Assembly (NCBI GenBank): GCA_963923625.1
Contig: CAWUMZ010000001.1
Coordinates: 1 to 49,995, forward strand
Source of the DNA: an uncultured bacterium
Lineage (GTDB): Bacteria > Actinomycetota > Thermoleophilia > Gaiellales > F1-60-MAGs149
DNA length: 49,995 nt
Direction of reading: 5' to 3'
This document shows, one piece after another, positions 14,793 to 47,756 of the stretch. The first letter of the stretch is position 1. Each line of letters starts with the position of its first letter. The notes below the pieces were generated by a model that did not search any database, was not told the DNA's origin, and was given only the letters and a program-made list of their open reading frames with translations. The position numbers were made by a program, and so were the translations under genes.

Positions 14793-14858
14793 GTGACACC
14801 CCCGCGAGCAGACGTCTGGTAGCGTTCGACACGAGCGCGGCAGGGATGCGCTCGGCCG

Positions 14859-14886
14859 AGACGGGCCAAGAGCCCGTCTTTTTTTT
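14859..14886 (+). terminator. canonical intrinsic terminator (8-bp stem plus T-run)
   Basis: AGACGGGC (14859-66), loop CAAGA, GCCCGTCT (14872-79), followed by T's through 14886. It lies downstream of dtd. Confidence 0.7.
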
Positions 14887-14915
14887 GGGAAAACGCAGAC
14901 GAAAGGGGGTGCCAG

Positions 14916-15355
14916 ATGAGCGCAGCAGCGGATCCTCGCGAGCAGGTCGAGCAGCTGATCGCCGAGGCGCGCCCTGACGTCTACGTGTGGGACGTCACGG
15001 CGGACCCCGGTCACGGGCAGCTCCGCGTGATGATCGATCGCGAGGGCGGCGTCGACCTCGGTCTCTGCGAGGAGATCTCCAAGGTCCTGCTGCCCGTGCG
15101 CGAGGAGTGGGCGCTCGAGGTGTCGTCGCCCGGACTCGATCGCGCGCTCACGCGCCCCGAGCACTACGCGCGCATGGTCGGACGCGAGGCGTCCTTCGTC
15201 CTGCGCGCGCCGGTCGACGGCCAGACGTCCTTCGCGGGCGTGCTCGTGGCCGCCGGCCCCGATTCCGTCACGGTCGAAACCGGCGACGGGCGCCTCGAGG
15301 TGCCCTACGCCGACGTCAAGAAGTCAACCCTCATGTGGAAGCTGGTGAAGTCACG

Positions 15356-15359
<4 letters not shown>
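14916..15359 (+). CDS. rimP: ribosome maturation factor RimP
   Basis: ...LEVSSPGLDRALTRPEHYARMVGREA... GGGGGT-type SD upstream. ATGA overlap with nusA. Conserved position upstream of nusA. Confidence 0.9.
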
Positions 15360-16852
<1,493 letters not shown>

Positions 16853-17144
16853 CGCCGCCGCGTCCGCGCCCGAGCGCACCTGCTCGGGCTGCGGGCGGCG
16901 TCGACCGCAGAGCCGCCTCGTGCGGCTCTCGGTCGATGCCGCCGGCGCGCTCGTGGTCGGCGGCAGGACGGGGCGGGGGACGTACCTCTGCCCGCAGGAC
17001 GCGTGCGTCGACGCCGCGCTGCGATCGCGTGCGATTCCGCGACGTCTCCGCGTGCCCGTCGAGATCCCCGAAGACCTTGCGGCGCTTGTGATCGCGGCGC
17101 TGCCGGGGGGCTGAAATCCGCATGGCTGATAGGATCCTCGGCTG

Positions 17145-19478
17145 ATGGCTAAGCGACGAATCGTGGAAATCGCGCGTGAGCGCGGGCTCGATCCCAACGA
17201 GGTGGCCCGCGTCCTCTTCGAGGCGGGCGTGCCGATTCAGCGGGACATGGTCGACGAGGTCGCAGCGGCGCGCGCGCTGGCGGGCTCCAAGCCGAAGAAG
17301 CCACCGGCGAAGAAGAAGTCGGCCGCTTCCGCCGCGAAGAAGCCCACGGCCGCCAAGGGCGCCGCCGAGGCCAAGCCGGCCGATCCGGCCGCCGCGCACC
17401 CCAACGCGATCAAGCCCGAGCCCGTCGAGCCGCCCAAGAAGAAGGAGGAGGAGGCCGCTCCCGCCGCTGGCAGTGAGCGCCCCGCCCGCGATTCGCGTCC
17501 GCCGCGCCCGACCTCGGGCGGCAGCCGCTTCGCCCCGCCGCCTCCGCCCGGTGGCGCACCGGCCGGTCGCGCCCGCCCGCAGCGCGGCGTGCCCCAGGGC
17601 AAGAAGCGCCGCGTCGTCATCGACTCGCAGGCAGCGCGCGGTCCGCGCGAGCGCCCGCAGCGCGGCGGTCGCGGCGGCGGCGACCGCGAGGTGCGCGAGG
17701 AGAAGCCGGTCGTCCGCCCGACGGGCCCGGTCACCGTCCCCAGCGGCGTCACCGTCAAGGAGTACGCGGAGAAGCTCGGCGTGTCCACGGCCGAGATCAT
17801 CAAGACGATGATGGGCCTCGGCGAGTTCGTCACGATCACGCAGTCGCTCACCGATGAGGCGATCGAGATCATCGCCGCCGAATTCGAGCGCCCGGTCACG
17901 ATCCAGAGCGCGGAGGAGGAACTCGACGACATCGTCATCGAGGACGATCCGGCGACGCTCAAGCCGCGCGCCCCCGTCATCACCGTGATGGGCCACGTCG
18001 ATCACGGCAAGACCACGCTGCTCGACGCCATCCGCGAGACCAGCGTCGTCGCGGGCGAGGCCGGCGGCATCACCCAGCACATCGGCGCGTACCAGGTCGA
18101 TGTCGGCGATCGTCAGGTCACCTTCCTCGATACGCCGGGCCACGAGGCGTTCACCGCCCTGCGCGCCCGCGGCGCCAAGCTCACCGACGTGGCCGTGCTC
18201 GTCGTCGCCGCCGACGACAGCGTGATGCCGCAGACGCTCGAGGCGATCGATCACGCCAAGGCCGCCGAGGTGCCGATCGTCGTCGCCGTCAACAAGATCG
18301 ACAAGCCCGGCGCGAACCCGCAGAAGACGCGCCAGGACCTCGTTACGCACGGACTGCAGCCCGAGGACTGGGGTGGCGACACCGTGTTCGTCGACGTCTC
18401 GGCCAAGGAGAAGACCGGTCTCGACAACCTCCTCGAGATGCTGCTGCTGCAGGCTGACGTGCTCGAGCTCAAGGCGAACCCCGACGCACCGGCCTCCGGT
18501 CCGATCGTGGAGTCGCGCCTCGACGTCGGTCGCGGCCCCGTCGCGACGATGCTCGTGCAGCGCGGCACGCTCAAGCAGGGTGACGCCGTCGTCGCCGGCG
18601 ACGCCTGGGGCAAGGTGCGCGTCATGCTCGACGAGCACGGCGTCAAGCTCGAGTCCGCCGGCCCCGCCGAGCCCGTCGAGATCGTCGGCTTCGACAAGCC
18701 GCCGCCGGCCGGCGAGGTCTGTCGCGTCGTCGACTCCGAGCGCGATGCGCGCCACCTCGCGCAGAAGCGCGCCGCGCGCCTGCGCGCCGAGGAGCTCTCG
18801 CGTCGCAGCCAGAAGTCGATCTCGCTCGAGGATCTCTTCAAGCAGGTCTCCGACGGCAAGGTCCGCGACCTCAACCTCGTCATCAAGGGCGACGTGCAGG
18901 GCTCCGTCGAGGCTGCCGTCTCCGAGCTCGACAAGATCAAGAGCGAGGAGGTCGCCGTCCGCGTCATCCACACGGGCGTCGGCGGCATCACCGAGTCCGA
19001 CATCATGCTCGCGGCCGCCTCCAAGGCGATTGTGATCGGCTTCAACGTCCGTCCGAACGCGGAGGCCAAGGGTCTCGCCGATCGCGAGGGCGTCGACATC
19101 CGCACCTACAAGGTCATCTACAAGCTGACCGAGGACATCGAGGCCGCGCTCGTCGGCATGCTCACGCCGGACATCGTCGAGGAGGTCACCGGCACCGCCG
19201 AGGTGCGCCAGCTGTTCAAGGCCTCCAAGATCGGCACGATCGCCGGCTGCATGGTCACCAGCGGCGTGATCGCCCGCGGCTCGAATGCGCGCGTCATCCG
19301 CGACGGCGTTGTCACGTGGGACGGCGAGATCGACTCGATCCGCCACCTCAAGGACGAGGTCAAGGAGATCAAGGAGGGCTTCGAGTGCGGCATCGTGCTC
19401 AAGGGCTTCTCCGATCTCGAGGAGGGTGACGTCCTCGAGGCGTACGTCTCCAAGTCCGTCGAGCGCACCGAGCTCTAG
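17145..19478 (+). CDS. infB: translation initiation factor IF-2
   Basis: 777 aa with a Lys/Pro/Ala-rich N-terminus and a GTPase domain ([29 protein letters not shown]). Confidence 0.97.
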
Positions 19479-19487
19479 GCGCGGATC

Positions 19488-20450
19488 ATGGCGCGGGAGT
19501 TCGAGCTCGCCGATCTCGGAGGCGGTGCCCATCGCGTCACGATGCCGCTGCCGTGGGCGCTCGATCACACGCACTGCTACGCGATCGAGGCGCCTGAGGG
19601 GTGGACGATCATCGACACGGGTCTCGGCACTCCCGGCACGGTGCGGCGCTGGACCGAGGCGCTCGAGCTGCTCGGGAATCCCCGCATCCACCGGATCCTC
19701 GTCACGCACTACCACCCCGACCACGTCGGCTGCGCGGGACTGCTCGCGGACCTCGTCGAGCCGGACGAGATCGTGATGGGCCGCATCGACGCCGCGCTGT
19801 GCCACGGAGCCTGGGTCGACATGGACATCGAGGGTGTCTACGACCACATGCATGGCAACGGGATGTCACCCGAGATGGCGCGCGAGGCGGCCGATGACGA
19901 GGGCAACTCGCCCGTCTCGATCCCGAACCCGACGCTGCTGGTCGACGAGGACGACGTCATCCGCCTTGGTGATGAGGACTTCCGCGTCCTGCACCTGCCC
20001 GGGCATGCCGACGGCCACATCGCGCTGCTCGGCGTCGATTCCGGGCGAATGTTCGGCGGCGACGTGATCCTGTCGAAGATCAGCCCCAACGTCGGGCGCT
20101 GGGAGGACACGGCGTTCGATCCGCTGGGCCGCTACTTCGAGACGCTGGAGCGCCTCGCCGAGCTGTCGCCCGCGATCGTGCACGGCGGGCACCGGGCGCC
20201 GGTCGAGGACGTTCCGGGTCGGGCGCGCGAGATCCGCGCCATGCACGATGAGCGCCTGCTGATCGCGCACGCCGCGCTGCAGGACGGTGCCGTCTCCGCG
20301 ATGGACGTCGCGACGGTCATCTGGCCCGACGGCCACGGCATGCACGAGCGCCGCTTCGCGCTCGTCGAGGCCCTCGCGCACGTCGAGCGCCTGGTCGCCG
20401 ACGGCCGCGCGACGATGTCGGCCGACGGCCGACGCTTCGCTGCCGCGTAG
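19488..20450 (+). CDS. MBL-fold metallo-hydrolase
   Basis: The HxHxDH motif (VTHYHPDHVGCAG) and a downstream His (HLPGHADGH). Confidence 0.85.
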   Translation: MAREFELADLGGGAHRVTMPLPWALDHTHCYAIEAPEGWTIIDTGLGTPGTVRRWTEALELLGNPRIHRILVTHYHPDHVGCAGLLADLVEPDEIVMGRIDAALCHGAWVDMDIEGVYDHMHGNGMSPEMAREAADDEGNSPVSIPNPTLLVDEDDVIRLGDEDFRVLHLPGHADGHIALLGVDSGRMFGGDVILSKISPNVGRWEDTAFDPLGRYFETLERLAELSPAIVHGGHRAPVEDVPGRAREIRAMHDERLLIAHAALQDGAVSAMDVATVIWPDGHGMHERRFALVEALAHVERLVADGRATMSADGRRFAAA

Positions 20451-28173: not shown

Positions 28174-29859
28174 TCAGCCGTTCTGATGGATGGTGTCCCA
28201 CGGGATCTTCGAGAGGCCCAGCAGGAACGGATCGGTCAGACCGCCCCAGTTCTTCGAGAACGCCTGGACGCTCTGCTTCTGCGCGACCCACAGGTACGGC
28301 AGATCCGCGTTCAGCATGTCCTGCATCTGCCAGACGAGATCCTTGCGCTTCGCGGGATCGAGCGTGACGCCCTGCTCGGAGTAGAGCTTGTCGTACGCCG
28401 GGTTGCAGTAGCCCGTGTCGCTCCAGCCGCCGTACTGGTTGCAGAGCGTGACGGACAGGATGAAGTCCGGGTCGATGTACCCGACCCAGTCCCAGATCGC
28501 CATGTCGAAGTCGAGGTACTTGTTGTCAGGGGCGATGATGGCCTCGAACGCCGCCGTGGAGTCGAGCTTCTTCGCGGTGATGTTGATGCCGAGCTGCGCC
28601 CACGACGTCTTGAGGATCTCGAACAGGCGGTCGATGCCCTCGACGTTGTCGGGGGTGATCACCTCCCAGTCGAACTTCGATCCGTCGGGGCCGACGCGGA
28701 TGCCGTCGGCGCCCTTCTTGTAGCCGGCGTCGTCGAGCATCTTGTTGGCCGCCGCGATGTCGTAGGTCGGCACCGCGATGTCGGTGTTGTCGTACGGGCT
28801 GGACAGCTTCGTGATGCCGGTGGCGATCGGATCGCCGTACCCGTTGAGGACCGTGTCGATGATCTGCTGCCGATCGAGAGCCGTGTTGAGCGCGGCCTTG
28901 ACCTTCGGGTCGAGCAGCTCCTTGTGATCCGTCTTCTTCGGGTTCGAGTTGATCGGGATGTCGTACGTGAACGTCGACTTGCCGATCTGGACGGTGAAGT
29001 TCGGATCGGACTGCCACTGCTTCGCGAGCGTCGGCGGCAGGGTGTCGACGGCGTCGAGCTGCCCGCCCTTGAGCGCGGCGAGCATGGCGTCCGCGTTCTG
29101 GTACACGGTCAGGCCGACGGCGTCGACGTGCGGCGCCTTGCCGTAGTAGTCCGGGTTCTTCTTGAGGAACGTCGTGCCCTTCTTCTCGAACTTGTCGATC
29201 GTGAAGGCGCCCGCTCCGACGACCGGGCCGGCGCTGGCGGGATCCCACGTCTTAAGGCCCTTGCCGTTGGCGCCGACGATCGGCTCGACGACGTGCTGGG
29301 GGAGGATGAAGAACTGCTGCAGCTGCGGCAGGACGTTGGCGACGGCCTTGTCGTAGGTGATGACGACGGTCGTATCGTCCGGCGCCTCGACCTTGGTGGC
29401 GTGCGCGATGAACGGCGCGAGGGTCGCGGCGGCGCCGTCGGCGTACTTGATGATGAGATTGCCGGTGAAGGCCGCGTCGGCGGCGGTCAGGGGCTTCCCG
29501 TCCGACCACTTGCCGCCCGGCTTGACCTTGAAGGTCCAGACCTTGCCGTCGGCCGAGGTGGTCCAGGAATCGGCCCAGTCGCCGGTGATCTTGTAGTTCT
29601 CGTCGTACTGCACGAGCGTCGGGTACTCCTCGGTGAAGAGGATGTACGAGAGGCTGGAGAAGCCCACGAACGGATTGATCGAGTCGGGATTGGAGATCGT
29701 GCCCATGCGGAAGATCCCGCCCTCCTTGATCGGCGTATCGCCGGTTGCGGCACTGCCGCCGCCGCCTCCGCCGCCGGGCGTCGTCGAGGCTCCGCCACCG
29801 CACGCGGCGAGCACGCCCACCGCGAGCACCAGCATCGCTCCGAGGATGATCTTGCGCAT
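28174..29859 (-). CDS. ABC transporter substrate-binding lipoprotein (family 5, peptide/nickel type)
   Basis: Lipoprotein signal MRKIILGAMLVLAVGVLAACGGG and a family-5 SBP body. ATG at 29859 with GGAGAGGGAGGG upstream. Confidence 0.9.
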   Translation of the reverse strand: MRKIILGAMLVLAVGVLAACGGGASTTPGGGGGGGSAATGDTPIKEGGIFRMGTISNPDSINPFVGFSSLSYILFTEEYPTLVQYDENYKITGDWADSWTTSADGKVWTFKVKPGGKWSDGKPLTAADAAFTGNLIIKYADGAAATLAPFIAHATKVEAPDDTTVVITYDKAVANVLPQLQQFFILPQHVVEPIVGANGKGLKTWDPASAGPVVGAGAFTIDKFEKKGTTFLKKNPDYYGKAPHVDAVGLTVYQNADAMLAALKGGQLDAVDTLPPTLAKQWQSDPNFTVQIGKSTFTYDIPINSNPKKTDHKELLDPKVKAALNTALDRQQIIDTVLNGYGDPIATGITKLSSPYDNTDIAVPTYDIAAANKMLDDAGYKKGADGIRVGPDGSKFDWEVITPDNVEGIDRLFEILKTSWAQLGINITAKKLDSTAAFEAIIAPDNKYLDFDMAIWDWVGYIDPDFILSVTLCNQYGGWSDTGYCNPAYDKLYSEQGVTLDPAKRKDLVWQMQDMLNADLPYLWVAQKQSVQAFSKNWGGLTDPFLLGLSKIPWDTIHQNG

Positions 29860-29974
29860 CGAACCCTCCCTCTCCATGGAACCCCCTCCGGGTTGCTGCG
29901 CAGTCTAATCGCAGAGTCAGGACGCATTCCTGATCAGCCGATCAGTCGCTGCTGCGCTATGCGAGAATCGCACG

Positions 29975-37038: not shown

Positions 37039-37428
37039 TCAGCGCGGCGCGGGCGTCTTCGGCGCCCGCGTCTTGCGCTGGAACCGCCGCTGCTCGTCGG
37101 TGCCGCCCGGCAGATCGGCCGGCGGCTCGCCGTCGTCATCGTCCTCATCCTCGTCGTCCGCCCAGCCGCGTGCCAGATAGAGGAACGCGGCGCCGGCGAT
37201 ACCCGCCACCAGCAGCGCCAGCGCGAAGATGCGCTCCGACGACACGATCACGATCGCGCTCATCGCCACCCCGAACGCCAGGATCGCGACGCCGGCGAGC
37301 AGCGACATGACCCGCGGCGCAACGTGGCGTTGCGGGGGGCGCGAGCGGGCGGCGACGATCACCGCCACCAGCACGATGATGATCTCGATCGCGATCACAC
37401 GGAAACGGTAACGGAGCCCGCATGCCAT
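37039..37428 (-). CDS. hypothetical membrane protein with an acidic then basic C-terminal tail
   Basis: Three hydrophobic segments followed by ...GWADDEDEDDDDGEPPADLPGG...RKTRAPKTPAPR. The start is uncertain: ATG 37428, GTG 37398 or a later ATG. Confidence 0.55.
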   Translation of the reverse strand: MACGLRYRFRVIAIEIIIVLVAVIVAARSRPPQRHVAPRVMSLLAGVAILAFGVAMSAIVIVSSERIFALALLVAGIAGAAFLYLARGWADDEDEDDDDGEPPADLPGGTDEQRRFQRKTRAPKTPAPR

Positions 37429-38635
37429 GATCCGCGGCGTGAGCCACGTCCAGAACATCAAGGCCGTCGGGCACGACCTGCACGAGGCGGAGGAGTTCGT
37501 CTTCGAGCCGACCACGGTGCCGCAGAAGATCCTGCGGATCGTCGTGTGGCTGGCGATCGTGTTCGGCACGCTCGCGGCGCTGCAGGCGATCGGGATCGAT
37601 CCGATCGGGTGGCTGCGCGGCGTGGCCAACTCGATGGCGGACATCGAGCCGAAGTACCTCATCGCCGGCATCGTCTTCCAGACTGCGAACGTCCTGCTGG
37701 TCGGCTTCGCGTATGTGGCGATCTGGCGCTCGGCCTATCCGCAGGCCGGCAAGATCCCGGTCGGGCAGGTCGTCGCGTGCTTCGTGGTGTCGATCGCGCT
37801 CAACAGCGTCCTGCCCATGAGCATCGGCTCGTGGGTGATGCTCTTCATGTTCCTGGCGATCATCCCCGGTGCGACCGCGGCCGGCATGGCCTCCGGCTTC
37901 GGCGTCAGCAAGATGTTCTTCTTCGTGATGGGCATCATCACGTACGCCTACCTATTCATCTCGATCTCCGGCGCTCTCAACACCGCGGTCGGCGGGATCC
38001 AGAACCACCTGCCGGCGCTGATCGCGATTCTGATCGCGGTCGTGATCCTGATCGTCGTGCTGCTGAAGACGTTCCGGCAGAAGGCGATCAACAGCGTCAA
38101 GAACCTGAAGCAGGGCGCGAAGATCCTCAGCACACCGAAGCCGCTGATCCTGCTCGTGCTGCTGCCGCAGGCGCTCGGGTACAGCTTCCAGATCCTGACG
38201 ACCGCGGCGTTCATGCGCGGGTACGGGATCCCGGTCTCGATCGGGAACATCATCCTCAACAACGCGGCCAACTCGCTCGCGACGATCACGGCGGTCACGC
38301 CCGGCGGCGTGGGGGCGACGCAGGGCCTCACGACGATCGCACTCCACGGCGTCGCGACCCCGACCCAGATCGCCGGCTACTCGCTTGCTCAGCAGCTGAT
38401 CCTGACCGCGTGGAACTGCCTGCTCGCGACCGTGCTCGTGCTGGTGTTCTTCGGTTGGAGCGGCGGCCGGCAGATCGTCACGAACTCCCTCGTCAGCGCC
38501 CGCGAGGACATGCACGACAAGCGCGTCGCCAGCAAGCAGGCGAAGGCGGAGAAGAAGGCGGCCAAGCAGGCCGGTGCCGAGTCCGCCGGGCCGCACAGCG
38601 TCGACGGCACGTCGACGCCGCCTGATCAGGAGTAG
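37427..38635 (+). CDS. polytopic (about 8 TM) membrane protein, possibly of the UPF0104/LPG-synthase-TM (flippase-like) family
   Basis: 402 aa with about eight hydrophobic helices by eye and a Lys-rich C-terminal tail. The family call is tentative and from memory of the topology. Confidence 0.7.
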   Translation: MIRGVSHVQNIKAVGHDLHEAEEFVFEPTTVPQKILRIVVWLAIVFGTLAALQAIGIDPIGWLRGVANSMADIEPKYLIAGIVFQTANVLLVGFAYVAIWRSAYPQAGKIPVGQVVACFVVSIALNSVLPMSIGSWVMLFMFLAIIPGATAAGMASGFGVSKMFFFVMGIITYAYLFISISGALNTAVGGIQNHLPALIAILIAVVILIVVLLKTFRQKAINSVKNLKQGAKILSTPKPLILLVLLPQALGYSFQILTTAAFMRGYGIPVSIGNIILNNAANSLATITAVTPGGVGATQGLTTIALHGVATPTQIAGYSLAQQLILTAWNCLLATVLVLVFFGWSGGRQIVTNSLVSAREDMHDKRVASKQAKAEKKAAKQAGAESAGPHSVDGTSTPPDQE

Positions 38636-38738: not shown

Positions 38739-41700
38739 CTAGATCGAGAAGTCGACGCCCTCGGCTTCGACGCTCAGTTCGAACGGATCGGCGTTGAACG
38801 AGAAGCCGCCGTTGATGTTGATGAACGTCCCCCAGCCGCCCCAGCCGCCGCTGTAGCAGGTGAGGCAGGTCGTATGACCGCCGAGCCACCAGGGCCAGTG
38901 GACGCAGGCGCAGCTGTAGGAGTTCGCGAACGCGTTGTACCACTGCACCTGCACGTCGGCATCGGCGCTCGCCGAGACCGAGAAGTACGGCGCGGCATCC
39001 GAGATCAGCAGGGTTTCCGTGTACGAGAAGCACGCCTGCCAGTTGGCGGGCCAGATCTCCGTGGTGCCGGTGCACGAGCTGCCGCTCGAGTCCGACGTGA
39101 TGCTGAAGAAGCCGTTCGCGCCGATCACGATCGTCGGGAAGTTGTAGGTAATCCCGTAGACGTCGAGGGAGCCGGACATGGTCAGCGTCGTGGTGGTCGC
39201 CTGCGAGCAGCTCGGGTCGGTGCAGTTGGTGAAGACCCCCGACATCGAGGCGTCCGCCAGGTCGGGGATGTCGAGATTGCCGGCCGCGGCCAGGTAGAAG
39301 AGCGGCGCGCCGCCGTTCTCGATGAACGTCAGCTGGCCGTTGAGTGTCGCGAGGTCGGCGTTGAGCGCGATCTGCGCGTTCATGCCGAAGCTCGACGGCG
39401 TCTGATTCAGGTACACGGTCGTGTTGCCGAGGTTGAACCCGTCGAAGACCAGGTTGGCAGAGGCCGTCAGCGAGGTCGACGGCTGGCCGTTCTGCATCGA
39501 GAAGGCACCGGCGAAGGCGAGCGTGGTGCCACCGACGTCGAAGTTCGCTGCGCCGGAGATGCTCTCGTTGCCGTTCTGGCTGGCGACGGCGACCTGCATG
39601 TCCATCACGAAACCGGCGACGTCGAGGTTGCCGCTGCCGGTGAACGAGAAGTTGCCGTTCGAGTTGAAGTCGCCCGCGACGGTGATCTCGTTGTTCGTGC
39701 TCTGCGGCGACAGCGCGATGGTGGCGTTGAGGTTCGCGTAGTCGTCCGTGCCGACGTGGCCGAGGCCGACGTTGCCCGTCAGGCCGAAGCCGTCGATGCC
39801 GATCGCCACGTTCGTGGCGGCGAAGCTGAAGTCGCCGGGGCTGCCCTGCACCTGCTGGCCGGCGCTGTTGGTGACGGTCTCGGCGCAGCCGCTCTCGTAG
39901 ACGAGGGTGCCTTCAAGGGTGGCGGTGAAGAACGGGGCGTAGGCGAACGAGCCGGAGAACGCGACGCACTGCGGCGAGATCTCGAGCGTGGCGGGGTTGG
40001 CGGCGGTGCCGATGCTGAAGCCCGCGGCGGTCGTCAGGACGACGGCCGCGTTGAGGTCGAACGCCCCGGTCGATTGGGTGTACGACATGTCGAACGTGCC
40101 GTTGGCCATGGCCGCAGGTCCGAAGTTGAGGTTCGCCTGGATCTGGACGTTGACGTACTCGACGACGCCGTTGTCGATCGTGGCGTCGAACGCCTGCACG
40201 TTGACCGTGTTGCCCATGATGTCCATGTCGCCCGAGGCGGCGATCGACAGGTCGTTCGTGGAGGGCCCGTAGGTGACGTTGAGCGCGATCGAGAGATTGC
40301 TCAGCGAGAAGCCGGCGACGTTCAGCGATTGCGACTGCGAGACCTTGAGTCCCGCGGTGGTCGTGGAGGTTGCCCCGTCGTAGCTGAGATCGCCGCTGAC
40401 GTCGATCGTCGTGCCGAACATCGTGAATCCGCCGGCGAACGTGACGGTGTCGATCTGCGTCTGCTCGTTGAGCGAGACGGTGACGGTGGTCTGCTGGAAC
40501 TGCATGCCGCCGCCCGTGCCGGGGATGGTGAACGCGCCGACGGTGATGCTGGCGTTGAAGATCGTCGGGTCGAAGCTGAGGGCGGCCTGGACGTCGACCT
40601 CCGTGCCAAACAGCTGTCCGTCGAACGCCATCGAGAAGCCCGGCTGGATCACGATCGGCGTGCCGCCGACGTTGCCGAGGGTGCAGCCGTCGGGGGCGAT
40701 CACGAATTCGAAGTACGTCGCCTGCAGCGAGCCGCCGCCGACGCTGAGGATCGGGGTGGTGCCGGTCGACGAGCCGACCTGCACTTCGATGCACGGGTTG
40801 TCCTCGGAGAGCTCGGCGCCGATCGCGACGGGGATGTTGCCCGGCACGCCGAAGGCGCTCGTGAGCGCGGGCGGCAGGGAACCGGTGTTGAGGCTCGCGT
40901 AGAGCGCGACCGTCGGCGTGGGGAAGGGGACGCTGACGAGGTCGGCGCCGAGGGTGATGACGGCCTCGTTGATCGTGAGACCCTGATCGCCGAATGCGTT
41001 CTGCCAGTTCTCGATGCCGAACGAGGCGGAGACCTGCTGCGTGGTGAAGTCGTACGAGACCTCCACGGACATCTGCGGCGGCGATGACGTGCCGCCGCCG
41101 ACCGCGGCTGCGCTGAGGTTGGCGACGCCGCCCGCCGACACCGTCAGGCCCTCGGCGTTGTTGGTGATGCCGAAGTTGAGCGACGGCATCTGGATCTTCG
41201 ATCCGCCGGACGGGATCGAGTAGCTGCCGGGGATGTCGACGATCGCGTTGAAGAAGCCGGTGGTCGGGTCGAACTGGATCGTGCTGATGGCGTTCGGCAG
41301 GGAGGCTCCGACCAGTGTGGAGAACCATTGCGGCGAGGAGTACCCGCCGGTCACGGAGATCTCGCCGGGGGTCAGCGCGATGGTCTGCTTGCCGAAGCTC
41401 GGCAGGTCGAAGGACATCGTCGAGCCGAAGGACGAGTAGCCGAAGGCCGTGCCCGACTGGGAGCCGTTGCCGCCGCTGAGGGTGACGCCGTCGGCATCCC
41501 AGCCGCCCATCGAGATGCCCTGCGAGGTGATGTTGGTCGCGATCTCGGAGAAGTCGCCGAGACCCGGCACGGTCAGGCCGCCGGCGGTGCTGATCGACCA
41601 GCCGCTCTCCGTCGCCCCGGTGAAGGTCGGCGCGCCGGTCGTAGGTGTGACGCTGCCGGCAGGCAGGTCATAGCCCACGGTGATCGACGGATTCGAGAAC

Positions 41701-44700
41701 GACAGGCCCGGAGCGACGTTGATGCCGTTCGGCACGTCGGCGTAGAGCGAGAATCCGGATCCGCCGCCGATGCCGAAGACCGCGTCCGCATCGGCGGTGA
41801 TCGAGTCGCCGACGGGCGGATTCAGGTTCGCCGTCGTCGAGATCATCATGAACAGGTCCGCCTTCGGGCAGACGAGGTTCGTGAGGGTGCACGAGCTGCC
41901 CATGTCGAGCGTGGTGTTGTTGAGGGTCAGCACGGACGAGACGGTCCACGTCGGGATCACGGCCTTGACGTCCCAGTTCCAGGCGGCGTTGGTCTGCCCG
42001 ATCGAGCCCGAGAAGTCGGACGGCGTCACGTTCAGACCAGGCAGCGGCTGCCAGGTGGGGCCACCGCTGGCGGAGAGCGTGACGTTCCAGTTGGTCGTGT
42101 CGGTGTAGCTGAAGGCCGCGTTGAGGTTCGTCGGCGTCTCGCTGCCGCTGCTGATCGCGACCGTCGCCTTGCCGGTGAAGATCGGGCCGGTCGTGGCCGA
42201 GGTCCAGGTGGCGGTCAGCGTCGTCAGCTGCACGCCGCTCGCGAGGGTGGCGGGCGAGCCGATCGAGCCCGTCACGGTGGAGACGACGGAGCCGCTCGTA
42301 TTGGTGACGTTGCCGGACACGTCGACCGCCGCGTTGCCCACCGTGACGATGTCCTGGGCGGAGACGGACGCGCTGTACGTGCCGTTGTTGTTGAGGGTGC
42401 CGCTGACGCTGACGCCGTGGCTGCCATCGCTGCCCGTCGCGGTGATCGTGCCGTAGACGCCCGCGGTCGGTCCGAAGGAGAGGTTGGCGTTGCCGCTCCA
42501 GCCGGCGGGCAGGGTCAGGAGCGGGAACTGCGGGACCGGGATGTCGCCGATCAGCTGGGCGATGGTGCCGCCGCTGGACGACCCGCCGCCGCTCGAGCCG
42601 CCGCCGTTGCCGCCGGGCGCGACGAACACCAGGGACAGCGGGTTGTTCGTGATCGAGACGTTCGGCAGGCGCCACGAGCTCGGCAGCGACAGCGAGGCCT
42701 GCGGCATCGTGATGGTGGGGCTCAGCGAGGTGCCCTCGACGTCATTGACGCTGACGGTCGCGTTCGTGATCGTGGCGGTCAGGCCCGGGATGGCGGTGAT
42801 CGAGCCGCTCAGCGTCGCGGTCATCGAGAAGGCCGGCGTGCCGCCGAGTCCGAACACGGCATCGGCCGCGATCGTGATCGGGTCGCTCAGCGGCGGATCG
42901 ACGACCGCCGTCGTGTCGATGTTGAAGAACACCATCGACTTCGGGCAGGTGATGCCCTTCGTGGCGGTGCAGGCGCCCGACAGCTCCAGCGTCGTCTTCG
43001 TCAGCGTCAGCACCGACGCGGCCTTCCAGGTCGGCACGTTCGCGGTGACGTTCCACTGCCACGCGCCGTTGTCCTGGGCGATGCTGCCCGAGAAGTCGGA
43101 CGGGGAGATGCTCAGGCCATTGAGCGGCTGCCACGTGGGGCCGCCGCTGCCGGTCAGCGTCGCGCTCCAGTTCGAAGGATCGGTGTAGGAGAGCGTCGCG
43201 TTGAGCGCCGTCGGCGTCGCGCCGGACGTGCTCAGGGCGACGGTCGCCGATCCGGTCAGGATCGGGCCGTTCGAGGCCGTCGTCCAGTTCGCCTTCAGGG
43301 TCGAGAGTGCGACGCCGGGTGCGAGAGCGGTGGAGGAGGTCGTCGAGCCCGCGATCGAGGATACGGTGGTGCCGGACGCGTTGCTCGTGGTGCCGCTCAT
43401 GTCGAGCGACGTGCTGCCGATGGTCAGGATGTCGTTGGCCGTGACGCTGGCGGTGAAGGTGCCGGTCGTCGAGAGCGAGCCCGTCACGGCGACCTGGCCG
43501 CTGCCGTTGGTGGCGCTGGCGTCGACGGCGCCGGTGGTGGTGGCGCCATTGGGCGTGAAGGTCAGCGTCGTCGAGCCGGTCCAGCCGCTCGGCAGCGTCA
43601 GGAACGGGAAGGCCTTCGCGGTGATCGAGCCGCTCAGTTGCGCGTTGGCGCTGCTGCCGCCCGTGAACACGAGCGACAGCGGCGTGCTGCCGATCGAGAT
43701 CGCCGGCAGCTGCCAGCTGGCGGGCGTGGCGACGGTGCCGGAGGTGATCTCGATGCCGGCGGGCATCACGTAGCCCGCGGCATTGGAGATGGTGACGCCG
43801 CCGACGGTGAAGCTCGAGGCCGAGAACGGCGTGCCGTCGCTCGGCGTGGATGCCTGTCGCGTGCCCGCGCCCTTGCCGCTGCATGCGCTGGTCTGGGCGG
43901 CGGAGGGTGGCGTGATCGTCCCGAAGGTGGCGCTGTTGCCCGTGCCGAGCGGGAGATTGAGCGAGCCGCTGCCCGAGGCCTTGGCCGTCTGCGTGAGGAA
44001 CGAGCAGTACGCCTTGCCGGCGGACGCGCCGACGGAGACCGTCACGGTGCCCGTCCCCTGCGTGCCCGTGTTGTCGGTGGCCGTGACGGTGTACACGAGC
44101 AGTCCGGTGCGGCCGGGGACCCTGATCTTCGCGACGGATGACGTGTCATCGGAGATCGGCGTCTTGGTGCCGCTCACCTGCGCCCACTTGTACTTGAGCT
44201 CGCCGTTGCCGCCGGAGACCCGGACCTCGAGTGCCAGCTCCGCGTTCGGCGCGGCCGTCAGCAGCGGACCGCCGGCCACCGAGACGGTCGGCGGCGAGGC
44301 CTGCGTCGTGACGGTCGCGTCGGCGGTGCTGTGCGCGCCGGCGCCATCGGTGGCGGTGACGCGGAAGCCCAGCCCCTCGCTGGTGCTCGGCATCGTGAAG
44401 ACCGCCGTGGAGCCGGTCTTCGCCGAGAGGGCGACCGACGGTCCGGAGGTCTGCGCCCAGCTGTAGGTCACCGTGCCCGTGCCGCCCTGCGCGAGTGCCG
44501 TGAGCTGCACCTTGCTGCCGGGCAGTGCGCCGAGCGACGGGGCGCCGACGATGCTGGCGGCAAGCGCCTGCGTGGTGTCGGTGGCCTTCACGTCGGAGCC
44601 GACATCGACCGTCACGCGTGCGGAGCCCTGCTTGCCGCCGCCGTCGGTGACGGTGACGGTGTAGCTGACGAGCCCCTTCGTCGCCGGCATGTGCGCCTTC

Positions 44701-47700
44701 GTGCTCTCGCCGGCGGCATCCGAGAGCGTGGTGGGTGCACCGGCCGACTGCTTCCACGCGTAGTGCCGTTCGCCGGACCCGCCGCTGACAACTGCGCGGA
44801 GGGTCAACTCGGCGCCGGTCGCCGCGCTCTGCAGCGTGCCACCCTCGATCGTCACCTTCGGGCCGCCCTTGAGTGCCGCGCTGCCCTTGGCCGCGTTCGC
44901 CTTCTGCGTCGCCTTCGCCGAGGAGGCGCGCTGGCTGTCGCGCTTGCGGCGATCCGCCTCGGCGGCCTTCTGCTTCGACTTCTGGGCGGCCTTCTTGCCC
45001 GCCACGTCGCTGCTCTTGCCCGACGACGTGCGCTCACCGCCCTGCTTGAGCTTCTGCGGCGGGACCGCCGTGGTGCGCACGACCTGGGTGCGCGTGGAGC
45101 TGTGGTCGGAGATCGTCAGCTCGAAGACGTACGTGGTGCGCCGCTTCACGCCGGGGATCAGGGCGCGGGCGGTGGCGGCATGGGGATGCTCGACGCGCAC
45201 GACCGGCGACGGCGTCGCGGACGGGCACTTGCCGAATGCCTTGACGTCTTCCGCGGTCGTGCAGCGCTGCACCCAGGTGTAGTCGAGGGAGACGCCGTTG
45301 CCGGCGCTCTTGCTGCCCTTCAGCACGACGGTGCGCAGCTTCTTCGAGTTGCTCGACGCGGCGAGCGTCGACGGCGAGGCGGAGGCGGCGATCGAGATGG
45401 GGGAGCGCACGGGCAGCTTCTGGTGCACGACGCCGACCTCGACGTGCCTGGTCGCGATGGTGCGCGCCGTCGCGTTCCACGTGGTGGCGGCGACGCGCTT
45501 CTTGCCGGTGGCGTCGACGAGCAGCGTCACCTTCGGCGTGCGCGTGCGCTGGGCGAGCGTCGGCGCGAAATCGCATGTCAGCGCCTGGCCGCTGCGGCTG
45601 CAGGTCCAGTTCGAGCCCGTCGCGCTGACGAGCGAGATGCCGGTGGGCAGCGTGGTGGTGACCCGCAGTCGATCGATCGCGTTGTGCTTCTGCAGGTTCG
45701 CCGCGCTCATCGTGATCTCGCCGCGCCCACCCGAGTCGGGGATCTGCCGGACATCCGTCGAGATGCGGACCGTGCGGTCCGTGGCGACCACGCGCAGACG
45801 GACGGGAACGCGGTCCTCGCCCGGATCGCCCGACAGCTTCGCGATGACGGGCCCGAGCGGCGCGTCCTTCGTCTCGCGCGACGGCAGCACGGTGATGTCG
45901 ATGGTGCCGACGACTCCGCCGGGGGCGACGGCCGCTGAGGGGCTCAGTGAGCACGACACGTTGCGACCGGTCGTGCAGGTCCCCTCGCCGTTGACGCCGG
46001 CGGAGATGAGCTTCACGCCGCTGCCGATGGTCTCGGAGATCGAGACCGTCGATCCGGCCGGCACCGCATCACCGCCGTGATTCTCGAGCTGCACGCGGTA
46101 CGTGAACGCCTGGTCCTTCATCACCTTGGTGTGGCCGCCGTCCTTCCACGTCTTCCAGGTGTGGCCGTCGCTCTTGAACTGGATCGAGGGGGCGATGCGC
46201 GGATCGCCGACGTCCTGCACGATGAAGGGCACGGTGTGGGAGATGTCGTGCCGGCTGTTGTCGGCGTACGGCGTCGTCGTGATCTTCCCGTGCGTCGCCG
46301 GCGTGGCCGTCGTCGTCGCCGCCGTGACGTCGATCGTCGCGTACTTGCCGACGGCCACGGAGGAGGTCGGGTTGACGCACTCGGCGCCGAGGCTGTTCGG
46401 CGTGCATGTCCAGCCGCTCGTGTGGCTGGTCAGCGTGATGCCCTTCGGCAGTGCGATGCGCACACCCGGGTGCGTGGCGGTCACGTCGCCGGTGTTGCGC
46501 ACGCGGATGCGCAGCTGGGTGGTGCGGCCCTGCGCGACGTCGATGCCGTGCTTGGCCTCGACGCGCGCCGTCATCGTCGCCGGCTGCAGGACGTGGAACT
46601 TCCAGCTGTAGCGCTGCGAGAAGCACGTCGTGCCCTTCTGGCGCGCCGTCGTCGCCCCCTGGTCGGCGATCGTGGTCCAGTTGACCTTGCCGCTCAGCTG
46701 CCACTTGATGCGCTTCGCCTTGCCATCCGACAGCCGCACGAGCGGAGTCCAGTGGACGTGCAGGTACTCCGCCTCGGCGCCGATGTCGACGGGGCGGTGG
46801 TACGTGCAGATGGTGGTGCCCGTGGCGTCGGAGCAGGACCAGCCGACGCCGGTCACCGTGAACGCCACGTCCGGCGCGCTCTCCGGAAGGATGCCCTGGA
46901 CCATCAGCGAGGGCTTACCGCCGACGCTCTGCGCGACGAGGCCGCCAACGTTGCGCAGGCGGATCACGAAGTCGCGCTCGCTGCCGACGCTGTCGGTGGC
47001 GTCGATCGTGGAGCGGATCAGCGGCTGGACGAAGCCGGTGATCGCCTCCGCCGCCACCGTGCTCGTCGCGGTGAGCGTGCCGGCCTCCGTGGGGACGGCG
47101 AGGGCGGCGGTGATGTCGCCGAGGGCGATCTGCTGCGCGACGCTCGGATCGGGCGGGTTCGGTGTGTTCTTCGGCGGCGTCGGCACGAGATTCGGCGCGG
47201 CCTTCACGATCATGAAGAGCTCGACGACCTGGTTCGGCTGCACGGACGCGGCTTCGGTCGAGGTGAGGCTGCGGTTCATCGTGCAGGTGACGACCTGTCC
47301 AGCGGTCGTGCAGGTGAAGGCGCCGTTCATGCGCGCCTGGTCGCGATCGTCGGCCTGCACGCCGACGTACGTGAGGCCCGCGGGGAGCGTGATCGTGGTC
47401 GTGAGCGGTCCGCCCGACAGCGTGGTGTGGTCGTACTTCATCGCCATCTGGATCACGCCGGTGCGGCCCTGGCCGATCGTGAAGTACTTCGACTTGCTCT
47501 GGCCGTTCGAGTTCGAGCGGCCGATCGGCTTCACCTCGATCCACGCGTACGGCGCGTCCGACGAGCGTGTCGCCGCGGTCTGCTCGGCGGTGAGCGCGGT
47601 GGACACGGCGGCGGTCGTCGCAACGGGAGCGGCGGTCGCGTCGGCGCCGGTCGCCGGCGCCTCCTGCGCCCCGGCGGCTGCGGTGAGGGCGAGCAGCGCG

Positions 47701-47756
47701 AGCAGCAGCGCGGCGGCGAATGGCCCTGCTCGACGGACGACTCCCAGCTGGTTCAC
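38739..47756 (-). CDS. giant secreted multi-domain protein (3,005 aa): signal peptide, DUF11-like repeats, PKD-like repeats, basic linker, two large novel repeats, Gly/Ser/Thr/Asn-rich C-terminal region with a Cys/Trp-rich end
   Basis: Uninterrupted 9,018-nt ORF with strong GC3 bias. GTG start with GAGGGA upstream. Signal peptide ...FAAALLLALLALTAAAGAQE. DUF11-type motifs (LPAGLTYV...FTCT..VTCT; GWSCS; GWTCT; NWTCS) and PKD-like Y-x-W-x-Q motifs. Confidence 0.9.
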   Translation of the reverse strand: MNQLGVVRRAGPFAAALLLALLALTAAAGAQEAPATGADATAAPVATTAAVSTALTAEQTAATRSSDAPYAWIEVKPIGRSNSNGQSKSKYFTIGQGRTGVIQMAMKYDHTTLSGGPLTTTITLPAGLTYVGVQADDRDQARMNGAFTCTTAGQVVTCTMNRSLTSTEAASVQPNQVVELFMIVKAAPNLVPTPPKNTPNPPDPSVAQQIALGDITAALAVPTEAGTLTATSTVAAEAITGFVQPLIRSTIDATDSVGSERDFVIRLRNVGGLVAQSVGGKPSLMVQGILPESAPDVAFTVTGVGWSCSDATGTTICTYHRPVDIGAEAEYLHVHWTPLVRLSDGKAKRIKWQLSGKVNWTTIADQGATTARQKGTTCFSQRYSWKFHVLQPATMTARVEAKHGIDVAQGRTTQLRIRVRNTGDVTATHPGVRIALPKGITLTSHTSGWTCTPNSLGAECVNPTSSVAVGKYATIDVTAATTTATPATHGKITTTPYADNSRHDISHTVPFIVQDVGDPRIAPSIQFKSDGHTWKTWKDGGHTKVMKDQAFTYRVQLENHGGDAVPAGSTVSISETIGSGVKLISAGVNGEGTCTTGRNVSCSLSPSAAVAPGGVVGTIDITVLPSRETKDAPLGPVIAKLSGDPGEDRVPVRLRVVATDRTVRISTDVRQIPDSGGRGEITMSAANLQKHNAIDRLRVTTTLPTGISLVSATGSNWTCSRSGQALTCDFAPTLAQRTRTPKVTLLVDATGKKRVAATTWNATARTIATRHVEVGVVHQKLPVRSPISIAASASPSTLAASSNSKKLRTVVLKGSKSAGNGVSLDYTWVQRCTTAEDVKAFGKCPSATPSPVVRVEHPHAATARALIPGVKRRTTYVFELTISDHSSTRTQVVRTTAVPPQKLKQGGERTSSGKSSDVAGKKAAQKSKQKAAEADRRKRDSQRASSAKATQKANAAKGSAALKGGPKVTIEGGTLQSAATGAELTLRAVVSGGSGERHYAWKQSAGAPTTLSDAAGESTKAHMPATKGLVSYTVTVTDGGGKQGSARVTVDVGSDVKATDTTQALAASIVGAPSLGALPGSKVQLTALAQGGTGTVTYSWAQTSGPSVALSAKTGSTAVFTMPSTSEGLGFRVTATDGAGAHSTADATVTTQASPPTVSVAGGPLLTAAPNAELALEVRVSGGNGELKYKWAQVSGTKTPISDDTSSVAKIRVPGRTGLLVYTVTATDNTGTQGTGTVTVSVGASAGKAYCSFLTQTAKASGSGSLNLPLGTGNSATFGTITPPSAAQTSACSGKGAGTRQASTPSDGTPFSASSFTVGGVTISNAAGYVMPAGIEITSGTVATPASWQLPAISIGSTPLSLVFTGGSSANAQLSGSITAKAFPFLTLPSGWTGSTTLTFTPNGATTTGAVDASATNGSGQVAVTGSLSTTGTFTASVTANDILTIGSTSLDMSGTTSNASGTTVSSIAGSTTSSTALAPGVALSTLKANWTTASNGPILTGSATVALSTSGATPTALNATLSYTDPSNWSATLTGSGGPTWQPLNGLSISPSDFSGSIAQDNGAWQWNVTANVPTWKAASVLTLTKTTLELSGACTATKGITCPKSMVFFNIDTTAVVDPPLSDPITIAADAVFGLGGTPAFSMTATLSGSITAIPGLTATITNATVSVNDVEGTSLSPTITMPQASLSLPSSWRLPNVSITNNPLSLVFVAPGGNGGGSSGGGSSSGGTIAQLIGDIPVPQFPLLTLPAGWSGNANLSFGPTAGVYGTITATGSDGSHGVSVSGTLNNNGTYSASVSAQDIVTVGNAAVDVSGNVTNTSGSVVSTVTGSIGSPATLASGVQLTTLTATWTSATTGPIFTGKATVAISSGSETPTNLNAAFSYTDTTNWNVTLSASGGPTWQPLPGLNVTPSDFSGSIGQTNAAWNWDVKAVIPTWTVSSVLTLNNTTLDMGSSCTLTNLVCPKADLFMMISTTANLNPPVGDSITADADAVFGIGGGSGFSLYADVPNGINVAPGLSFSNPSITVGYDLPAGSVTPTTGAPTFTGATESGWSISTAGGLTVPGLGDFSEIATNITSQGISMGGWDADGVTLSGGNGSQSGTAFGYSSFGSTMSFDLPSFGKQTIALTPGEISVTGGYSSPQWFSTLVGASLPNAISTIQFDPTTGFFNAIVDIPGSYSIPSGGSKIQMPSLNFGITNNAEGLTVSAGGVANLSAAAVGGGTSSPPQMSVEVSYDFTTQQVSASFGIENWQNAFGDQGLTINEAVITLGADLVSVPFPTPTVALYASLNTGSLPPALTSAFGVPGNIPVAIGAELSEDNPCIEVQVGSSTGTTPILSVGGGSLQATYFEFVIAPDGCTLGNVGGTPIVIQPGFSMAFDGQLFGTEVDVQAALSFDPTIFNASITVGAFTIPGTGGGMQFQQTTVTVSLNEQTQIDTVTFAGGFTMFGTTIDVSGDLSYDGATSTTTAGLKVSQSQSLNVAGFSLSNLSIALNVTYGPSTNDLSIAASGDMDIMGNTVNVQAFDATIDNGVVEYVNVQIQANLNFGPAAMANGTFDMSYTQSTGAFDLNAAVVLTTAAGFSIGTAANPATLEISPQCVAFSGSFAYAPFFTATLEGTLVYESGCAETVTNSAGQQVQGSPGDFSFAATNVAIGIDGFGLTGNVGLGHVGTDDYANLNATIALSPQSTNNEITVAGDFNSNGNFSFTGSGNLDVAGFVMDMQVAVASQNGNESISGAANFDVGGTTLAFAGAFSMQNGQPSTSLTASANLVFDGFNLGNTTVYLNQTPSSFGMNAQIALNADLATLNGQLTFIENGGAPLFYLAAAGNLDIPDLADASMSGVFTNCTDPSCSQATTTTLTMSGSLDVYGITYNFPTIVIGANGFFSITSDSSGSSCTGTTEIWPANWQACFSYTETLLISDAAPYFSVSASADADVQVQWYNAFANSYSCACVHWPWWLGGHTTCLTCYSGGWGGWGTFININGGFSFNADPFELSVEAEGVDFSI
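41685..43790 (-). repeat. tandem duplication of a module of about 340-360 aa (about 1,020-1,080 nt) inside the giant gene
   Basis: Unit A is 43790->42771 and unit B is 42770->41685. The two DNA lines 42001-42060 and 43081-43140 align in register at an offset of exactly 1,080 nt. Shared peptide motifs: PLSLVF, FP.LTLP.GW.G, SYTD..NW, SGGPTWQPL.GL...PSDFSGSI, PTW...SVLTL, CPK, ADAVFG.GG. Confidence 0.8.
44028..44856 (-). repeat. three tandem PKD-like (about 86-aa) domain repeats inside the giant gene
   Basis: The repeats contain ...LTLRAVVSGGSGERHYAWKQSAGAPTTL..YTVTVTDGGG.., ...LTALAQGGTGTVTYSWAQTSGPSVAL..FRVTATDGAG.. and ...LEVRVSGGNGELKYKWAQVSGTKTPI..YTVTATDNTG... A fourth, more divergent copy lies upstream at about 45070-45400. 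Confidence 0.7.

Follow-up and report, generated by a model that had tools for sequence, protein, structure and literature searches.

The window considered here is a stretch of 49,995 nucleotides, positions 1 to 49,995 of contig CAWUMZ010000001.1 (assembly GCA_963923625.1), from an uncultured bacterium of the Thermoleophilia. Its largest open reading frame (ORF) lies on the minus strand at 38739-47756 and encodes a giant protein of 3,005 residues, the last 1,705 of which contain a single Arg and very little other positive charge. The protein belongs to an uncharacterised Thermoleophilia family and, judged from its translation, is probably exported by the Sec route and either secreted or retained at the cell surface. 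What is new here is the family of its C-terminal domain, not described before, and the unusual completeness with which selection has removed positive charge from a giant, putatively surface-located protein. The giant gene and its parts are arranged as follows.

38739-47756, minus strand: giant gene, 3,005 residues plus stop (ORF with a GTG start; GC content at third codon positions, GC3, of 0.94; homologues P0001-P0015; 32 genomic loci)
47667-47756, minus strand: N-terminal Sec-type signal peptide, about residues 1-30 (VNQLGVVRRAGPFAAALLLALLALTAAAGA, followed by QE), read from the translation
45057-47579, minus strand: DUF11-like array of immunoglobulin (Ig)-type repeats with paired Cys, about residues 60-900 (Pfam match, consensus pattern, composition)
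44877-45044, minus strand: strongly basic linker rich in Ala, Lys, Gln and Ser, residues 905-960 (10 Lys and 5 Arg in 56 residues)
43872-44840, minus strand: three K319L-like PKD domains, about residues 973-1295 (Pfam PF22352), where the last Arg residues lie, ending with Arg1300
38742-43856, minus strand: zone depleted in cationic residues, residues 1301-3005 (1,705 residues; residue recount), with the stop codon at 38739-41
42756-43796, minus strand: beta-meander module, copy 1, about residues 1321-1667 (internal BLASTP; all-beta in the AlphaFold2, AF2, model)
41592-42755, minus strand: beta-meander module, copy 2, about residues 1668-2055, which holds Arg1696 (internal BLASTP, AF2, orthologue alignment)
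38742-41591, minus strand: conserved C-terminal domain, residues 2056-3005, about 950 residues (AF2, profile search)

The scale of the depletion is apparent from a recount of the translation. Residues 1301-3005 hold 1 Arg, 12 Lys and 4 His beside 72 Asp and 30 Glu, giving a net charge of -89, and residues 1-1300 hold 65 Arg, 65 Lys, 53 Asp and 33 Glu, giving a net charge of +44. The zone opens after Arg1300 (CGA codon at 43857-59, context GAGTRQAS), and the only Arg to follow is Arg1696 (CGC codon at 42669-71, context SSWRLP). The original prediction, which had been made from the letters of the window, named the same two codons and about 12 Lys, and the recount agrees with it on all three. It had also called Asp and Glu common in the zone, which does not hold, as together they make up only 6.0% of its residues against 12.7% in the other genes of the window and 6.6% in the N-terminal part of the protein; the loss of His had gone unmentioned.

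Neither chance nor the base composition of the gene accounts for these figures. The 21 other GC3-supported genes of the window, which served as the background, average 7.9% Arg, 2.6% Lys and 2.2% His, in line with the earlier remark that the surrounding proteins are rich in Arg. Against this background the binomial probability of finding no more than 1 Arg in the zone is 1e-59, of no more than 12 Lys 1e-8 and of no more than 4 His 2e-12. Set against the giant protein's own N-terminal part (5% Arg, 5% Lys) the corresponding values are 1e-36 for Arg and 7e-24 for Lys. GC3 is equal in both halves of the gene (N-terminal 0.944, C-terminal 0.955) and the two are therefore under the same mutational regime, within which 868 of the 1,705 codons of the zone (51%) lie one nucleotide away from a codon for Arg or Lys. 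On the same equality of GC3 a foreign origin for the C-terminal half was rejected, as was a spurious ORF on the GC3 of 0.94 and the conserved homologues. A run of ORFs on the plus strand at 41746-44466, with GC3 values of 0.94-0.98, was set aside as artefactual: these ORFs lie antisense to the giant gene and have their third codon positions in common with it.

The N-terminal half begins with a signal peptide whose cleavage site is placed, from the translation, after the sequence LTAAAGA and before QE, and which has no lipobox Cys. The DUF11-like array that follows repeats an LPxG..GWxC..C pattern and has an ordinary content of Arg and Lys and a positive net charge. Within it, residues 407-498 match DUF11 (PF01345) with 44.7 bits against a Pfam gathering cutoff of 24.6, and the homologue P0013 carries the JGI name of a TIGR01451-family repeat protein. 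Between these repeats and the PKD domains lies the low-complexity linker (KKAAQKSKQKAAEADRRKRDSQRASSAKATQKANAAKG), whose basic, low-complexity character is retained in the consensus of the orthologues and which may be a wall-binding or stalk segment. The PKD domains are matched by PF22352 in three stretches (E=4.4e-26, 91.1 bits against a cutoff of 27), and their end is the domain boundary at which the Arg-free zone begins.

Scans of the whole giant protein against Pfam and NCBIfam at E<=1 returned only the PKD domains and a partial match of the PKD region to myxo_dep_M36, and nothing on residues 1301-3005. As judged from its translation, Pfam and NCBIfam, the protein has neither an SLH domain nor a lipobox, and neither an LPXTG motif nor a transmembrane anchor at its C-terminal end, nor did Pfam reveal any other recognised anchoring domain of surface-layer (S-layer) proteins. 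The C-terminus itself (...FELSVEAEGVDFSI, then the stop) has none of the LPXTG motif, hydrophobic tail and basic residues that make up a sortase anchor.

Conservation and variation of the depletion

A word-indexed search gave 15 homologues of the giant protein (P0001-P0015), nearly all of them metagenomic. A scan of genomic loci, restricted to one genome per species, gave 32 related loci, all of them in metagenome-assembled genomes (MAGs) labelled Thermoleophilia, Gaiellales, Miltoncostaeaceae or Actinomycetota, with a few MAGs bearing plainly wrong species labels. The sites that can be read from isolate names are all lakes (Pavin, Loclat, Erken, Mendota and others), and the closest relative, at 90% identity, is the orthologue at locus L002 (JAPLCF010000030.1) in a MAG from Lac Pavin. 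Loci L018 and L029 each seem to carry a tandem pair of family genes. When a profile of the C-terminal domain was compared with 1.84 billion cluster representatives it gave 619 matches at E<=1e-3, of which 252 reach E<=1e-30, and the named members are all called "hypothetical protein". A literature search on Arg/Lys-free surface proteins, on giant proteins of freshwater Thermoleophilia and on the effects of charge on secretion by autotransporters turned up neither the family nor a depletion of this kind. Across 34 loci no gene for secretion, anchoring or modification is a conserved neighbour, and synteny is local to clades, with GroES/EL in one clade and valS, ndk, an LPG-synthase-like membrane protein and a P-type ATPase in another.

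Within this family the depletion persists over large evolutionary distances. In all 32 loci the C-terminal domain, of about 930 residues, holds 0-17 Arg and 4-22 Lys, at identities down to about 40%; in the genes that flank the loci Arg plus Lys has a median of 9.9% and a 1% quantile of 4.3%. An alignment of 24 orthologues and paralogues, numbered on the window protein, shows that the last Arg before the depleted zone aligns to positions 1280-1300 in nearly every relative, which is the junction between the PKD domains and the beta-meander. In orthologues that have diverged to 40-55% identity the number of Arg stays at 0-3 over some 1,320 residues. The zone's own few Lys and its one Arg are not conserved in orthologues. 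The polarity of the protein is likewise constant, with the N-terminal half carrying a net charge of +37 to +78 and the C-terminal half one of -34 to -98 in 24 of 24 relatives. It had been proposed that so extreme a depletion implies selection, and that orthologues of normal composition would reduce it to lineage noise. As relatives in dozens of lake species keep the depletion, with a fixed boundary and with recurrence in at least three distant subgroups, selection is the supported conclusion, and what the trait was selected for we infer from the sequences.

Variation across the wider family is informative in a different way. Composition was taken from 120 cluster representatives with at least 600 matched residues, and clustering was based on 90 full-length domains. 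Among the 120 representatives Arg plus Lys in the domain forms a continuum between 0 and 9.5% (median 4.7%), and the fold therefore tolerates basic residues; the depletion is no property of the fold. Values below 2% are found in at least three separate groups, namely the clade of the window protein, a group of P0009, P0011, P0039 and P0070 at 27-30% identity, and P0045 with P0051, each of which sits beside groups at 4-8%; taken overall, the other subgroups of the domain family carry 4-9%. The homologue P0009 has 1,743 consecutive residues with neither Arg nor Lys. No column of the family has a basic residue in over 60% of the non-depleted relatives, and where these hold basic residues the depleted relatives hold Thr, Ser, Gln, Asn or Asp, with Gln enriched 3-fold at the former Arg/Lys columns. 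Ser, Thr, Asn and Gln together rise as Arg plus Lys falls (Spearman -0.74). His tracks Arg plus Lys across the family (Spearman 0.46; 0.19% in depleted and 1.02% in non-depleted relatives), which argues that it is charge, rather than protease sites alone, that has been removed.

The trait also extends beyond this fold. Directly downstream of the gene for P0009, at 14816-19972 on the plus strand of locus L034, lies a gene for a pentapeptide-repeat giant protein of unrelated fold (Pfam E=1e-171) with an N-terminal membrane anchor or signal. It is at least 1,719 residues long, as the end of the contig cuts it, has its repeats along the whole length and carries 6 Arg in its first 200 residues and 1 in the remaining 1,500 or so. 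Thus the depletion follows giant exported proteins as a class rather than one fold.

Architecture of the C-terminal zone

The two copies of the beta-meander module stand in tandem, are about 350 residues each and share 45-48% identity (E=1e-89 in segment-wise BLASTP). The second copy is confined to the window protein and its 90% orthologue in L002, most other orthologues having one copy, so the duplication is recent. It is also because of this duplicated module that the zone measures 1,705 residues here and about 1,320 elsewhere.

Modelling by AF2 with family alignments renders the entire zone as an antiparallel beta-hairpin meander, with a pLDDT of 73 and a pTM of 0.45 for residues 1301-2055 and a pLDDT of 74 and a pTM of 0.39 for residues 2056-3005. 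In the latter model 66 strands are present, their median length being 10.5 residues, and 46 of the 65 loops have four residues or fewer. The strands are amphipathic, with one face of Phe, Ala, Leu, Val and Ile (mean Kyte-Doolittle value 1.73) and the other of Ser, Thr, Asn, Ala, Asp, Gly and Gln (-0.75). Taken over the whole zone, the models predict about 110 such strands. At the C-terminal end a stretch rich in Cys and Trp (...SYSCACVHWPWWLGGHTTCLTCYSGGWGGWGTF...; about residues 2900-3005, 38742-39050 on the minus strand), where AF2 confidence is lowest, leads into a conserved terminal strand. The form of this strand, G-x-x-hydrophobic-x-hydrophobic, is conserved in the family, and it closes on Ile, Val, Thr or Ala (as in ...GVDFSI, ...GTWFTI and ...QLSFQV); the beta-signals of barrels end in an aromatic residue, usually Phe or Trp. 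The Cys/Trp-rich end and terminal strand could together be a sorting or assembly signal.

A search of PDB sequences with the profile of the C-terminal domain found no relative (best E 0.16). Foldseek, run on both AF2 models, matched membrane beta-barrels (Deinococcus SlpA/SDBC, LptD, PapC and VDAC/Tom40) and the beta-belt of ApoB100, the best matches reaching E-values down to 4e-5 and probabilities of 0.95-0.99, but with TM-scores of 0.05-0.31 and root-mean-square deviations above 20 Å. Such matches amount to low-TM local resemblance and were not accepted as homology. No closed barrel superposed on a known barrel, given these TM-scores, in a comparison weakened by the model's pTM of 0.39. Within the model of residues 2056-3005 short and long loops do not alternate (means of 4.5 for odd and 4.7 for even loops) and aromatic residues are not concentrated at the strand ends as a girdle, and on these statistics of loop length and aromatics a typical outer-membrane barrel was rejected. 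The Pfam and NCBIfam scans at E<=1 gave no match to an autotransporter beta-domain (PF03797 or relatives), to RTX/HemolysinCabind or to YD repeats (PF05593/TIGR01643) of the Rhs, teneurin and Tc-toxin type; teneurin itself appears very weakly in Foldseek (E of about 0.07-0.13, TM-scores of 0.04-0.08).

Possible roles of a surface without positive charge

The question that arises is what an exported protein of this size gains by excluding positive charge from more than half of its length. The explanation we favour, with confidence somewhat short of even, is that the cationic N-terminal half holds the protein to the cell envelope and that the cation-free C-terminal half is exposed, does not stick to its surroundings and is without trypsin sites. 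Export through Sec would deliver a polarised giant protein to the cell surface, where the net-cationic N-terminal half, with its DUF11-type repeats, PKD domains and basic linker, would grip the anionic envelope, a role assigned to it because the protein has no sortase, SLH, lipobox or transmembrane anchor. The amphipathic meander of 1,705 residues would then probably be the part exposed to the environment. Selection would have swapped its Arg, Lys and His for Thr, Ser, Gln and Asn, resulting in a surface that is neutral and polar with only sparse negative groups. A surface of this kind would be unable to bind back onto the anionic wall or membrane of its own cell, and unable to bind anionic dissolved organic matter or particles through forces that would be long-range in lake water of low ionic strength. 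In addition, some 110 beta-strands leaving the Sec translocon would not act like cationic membrane-active hairpins, and the C-terminal part would present almost no trypsin-type cleavage sites, including to the genome's own secreted protease. What the sequences and models show is the composition, its boundary at a domain junction, its conservation and recurrence, the charge dipole and the amphipathic all-beta build; the cell-surface location, the outward-facing half and the selective agent are what we infer in this scheme. Of the three reasons for the depletion that the original prediction put forward, the avoidance of anionic wall polymers appears the best supported, if indirectly, through the charge dipole conserved in all 24 relatives. 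If the dipole does act in this manner, attachment by cationic and anionic halves would need no dedicated anchor.

A number of points weigh against this explanation. The AF2 models, with their low pTM values, give at best a tentative tertiary shape. The topology may instead be reversed, as in autotransporters, so that the beta part lies close to the cell and the Ig-like domains far from it. Asp and Glu, at 6.0%, are not enriched and the charge density is only about -0.05 per residue. Some genomes hold pairs of strongly and less depleted paralogues (L021/L003, L014/L025 and L019/L024), so the environment alone does not set the trait. Finally, the link to fresh water rests on the close relatives and not on the non-depleted clades.

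The strongest rival, which we nevertheless regard as unlikely, gives the leading part to proteases: an exposed region would have been purged of Arg and Lys so as to evade them, with its negative charge a by-product. The most depleted residues are indeed Arg and Lys, the P1 residues of trypsin, and the residues that replace them are neutral and polar rather than acidic. The candidate proteases are the digestive enzymes of grazers or the organism's own secreted S1 protease, which would feed oligopeptide transporters, and the window encodes both an S1 protease and an Opp/Dpp-type peptide ATP-binding cassette transporter.

7158-8315, plus strand: secreted trypsin-family (S1) protease, not physically linked to the giant gene (Pfam Trypsin E=2e-46; ORF open from 6459)

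The S1 protease has a signal peptide, a TTR/VVGG activation site (the slash marking the cleavage), the His57/Asp102/Ser195 motifs, read as TAAHC, GDAALL and VDTCQGDSGGP, and a C-terminal extension of about 100 residues. It also has Asp189, from which specificity for Arg and Lys would be predicted; true trypsin-type specificity is uncommon in bacteria. Just upstream of its gene, at 5994-6887 on the minus strand, lies a gene for a XerC/D-type tyrosine recombinase (Phage_integrase with a SAM-like N-terminal domain). As for grazers, surface layers are reported to keep flagellates from digesting freshwater Actinobacteria (Tarao et al. 2009, cited in PMC10582637), which would favour evasion. Against it stands the co-depletion of His, which is irrelevant to trypsin, and the abundance of Lys in other exported sequence, including the N-terminal half of the giant protein itself, which at 5% has Lys at twice the background of the window, whose genes are mostly cytoplasmic. 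The same holds for a family-5 solute-binding lipoprotein (lipobox LAAC; 28174-29877, minus strand), which has 7.4% Lys and 1.2% Arg; exported proteins of the source genome seem to swap Arg for Lys. Moreover, folded beta-rich domains usually resist trypsin whatever their sequence. Trypsin resistance, as proposed originally, thus gains circumstantial support from the secreted protease with Asp189 and loses ground on His and on the Lys-rich exported proteins.

It is quite improbable, in our view, that the zone associates with a hydrophobic phase, as a giant beta-barrel or an ApoB-like belt in or around a lipid or hydrophobic outer layer or a target membrane, with the charge a constraint of insertion or assembly. 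The likeness in Foldseek to membrane beta-barrels and the ApoB100 belt, the strands of about 10-12 residues with one hydrophobic face and the conserved form of the terminal strand all speak for it. However, the low TM-scores, the want of a closed barrel, the unalternating loops and the missing aromatic girdle speak against it, as does the fact that no assembly gene is a conserved neighbour among the 34 loci. Furthermore, the outer-membrane barrels known to us are not depleted in Arg and Lys, and we know of no outer membrane in the Thermoleophilia.

The nutrient economy of an oligotrophic lake, in which an abundant extracellular giant would do well to avoid the nitrogen-rich residues Arg, His and Lys, is a very unlikely driver. 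Depletion of all three together would fit, as would the saving in side-chain nitrogen, which by arithmetic stands at about 13 per 100 residues in the C-terminal part where the other window genes have about 37, and the exported solute-binding protein likewise avoids Arg. Yet Asn is raised (6.3% against 1.8%) and Gln maintained, with its 3-fold rise at former Arg/Lys columns, the costly residues Phe (5.1%) and Trp (1.6%) are enriched, the N-terminal half of the protein is not economised, and paralogues within one genome differ in their depletion.

An acidic surface for the binding of cations such as Ca2+ or Fe, or of minerals and their nucleation, the third of the reasons first put forward, has little left to recommend it and we consider it highly improbable. 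The net charge of -89 comes without competing cationic groups, there are 2.4 Asp for every Glu, and it is on the polar face of the strands that Asp is placed. It is disfavoured because Asp plus Glu reaches only half the level of the other window genes, and it is slightly lower in depleted relatives (6.8%) than in non-depleted ones (8.5%). Some depleted relatives are nearly uncharged, for instance P0150 with 7 Asp plus Glu in 699 residues, and Pfam and NCBIfam found no RTX, cadherin or other Ca-binding motifs. Least credible of all is a neutral by-product, by which a beta-repeat rich in Ser, Thr, Gly and Asn drifted to low charge: it would suit the generally low charge of the domain (family median 4.7% Arg plus Lys) and the anticorrelation of Arg plus Lys with Ser, Thr, Asn and Gln, but not a genome of 70% GC in which half the codons of the zone are one mutation from Arg or Lys, the 0-3 Arg that persist in some 1,320 residues at 40-55% identity, the sharp and conserved boundary, or the recurrence of the trait in distant groups and on an unrelated fold.

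Likenesses to known systems

The nearest known kind of protein is that of S-layers and acidic coats, which the giant protein resembles in being exported, of the very abundant surface type and poor in Arg and His. S-layer proteins have a low isoelectric point and are rich in hydroxy and hydrophobic residues, while Arg, His and Met are scarce in them; their basic residues are mainly Lys, which reaches about 10%. In the giant protein's zone, by contrast, Lys is nearly absent, and the protein lacks SLH or any other anchoring domain. S-layer proteins are also typically of 40-200 kDa, whereas the giant protein has 3,005 residues with a stalk of Ig domains. In freshwater Actinobacteria resistance to grazing has been linked to S-layers (Tarao et al. 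2009, cited in PMC10582637).

Among proteins of known structure, Deinococcus SlpA/SDBC (PDB 8agd, 7zgx and 8ae1), LptD and PapC gave the best Foldseek matches (E=4e-5). The giant protein is like these in having a long antiparallel hairpin meander with strands of about 10-12 residues, and in a layout that sets an N-terminal part for envelope binding, proposed here, before a C-terminal beta part. It differs from these and other large barrels in TM-score (at most 0.19) and in lacking a closed barrel, loop alternation, an aromatic girdle or sequence kinship, and its host lineage is not known as diderm. With the belt of ApoB100 and vitellogenin (PDB 9ea7, 9e9r and 9enr) it shares a long, open, amphipathic antiparallel sheet with a hydrophobic face (Foldseek probability 0.99); these are eukaryotic lipid carriers and the TM-scores are 0.16-0.19. 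ApoB, moreover, keeps functional basic residues.

Mycobacterial proteins of the PE_PGRS and PPE-MPTR types are large surface proteins with very few Lys and Arg and are poorly visible to tryptic proteomics. They consist of Gly-Ala or Asn-Gly low-complexity repeats and leave by ESX-5, whereas the giant protein is a predicted Sec substrate with a beta-meander that is non-repetitive, conserved and amphipathic. Secreted passengers of type V and type I systems are net acidic, and positive charge is known to impede such export. With autotransporter and RTX adhesins the giant protein shares a modular, adhesin-like layout on a giant scale from N to C terminus and an acidic part; unlike them it has no beta-domain and no GGxGxD motif, has a classical Sec signal and an actinobacterial host, and lacks a conserved transporter gene nearby.

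What sets the giant protein and its relatives apart is scale, in that more than 1,700 residues (1,743 in P0009) are folded and conserved without positive charge where Arg is the third commonest residue. The depletion is thus a clean natural case of strong selection on the sign of surface charge, and it points to a testable principle of envelope construction. A bolder extension, to which we give little credence, is that the absence of cations is a design rule for the outer layer of freshwater Thermoleophilia and related Actinomycetota, with unrelated giants, namely the beta-meander family and the pentapeptide-repeat protein beside P0009, forming an undescribed neutral or anionic coat and the ribbon perhaps even scaffolding a hydrophobic or lipid outer layer, as ApoB or a beta-barrel might. 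Were there such a coat, it would be a new envelope architecture, invisible to standard tryptic metaproteomics. Should the electrostatic or the protease-proof reading of the zone be right, it would bear on how abundant but uncultured lake actinobacteria face grazers, phages, proteases and dissolved organic matter. In practical terms, only 13 tryptic sites are present in the C-terminal 1,705 residues, so metaproteomics based on trypsin will largely miss the zone and its relatives, and detection calls for chymotrypsin, AspN or GluC. The C-terminal domain of about 950 residues, with its 619 representatives and no relative in Pfam or the PDB, merits definition as a family.

Finally, convergent with the giant gene, at 37427-38635 on the plus strand, is a gene for an LPG_synthase_TM membrane protein that is syntenic in 4 related loci. 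The LPG_synthase_TM domain is common to lysyl-phosphatidylglycerol synthases, enzymes that alter the charge of the membrane.

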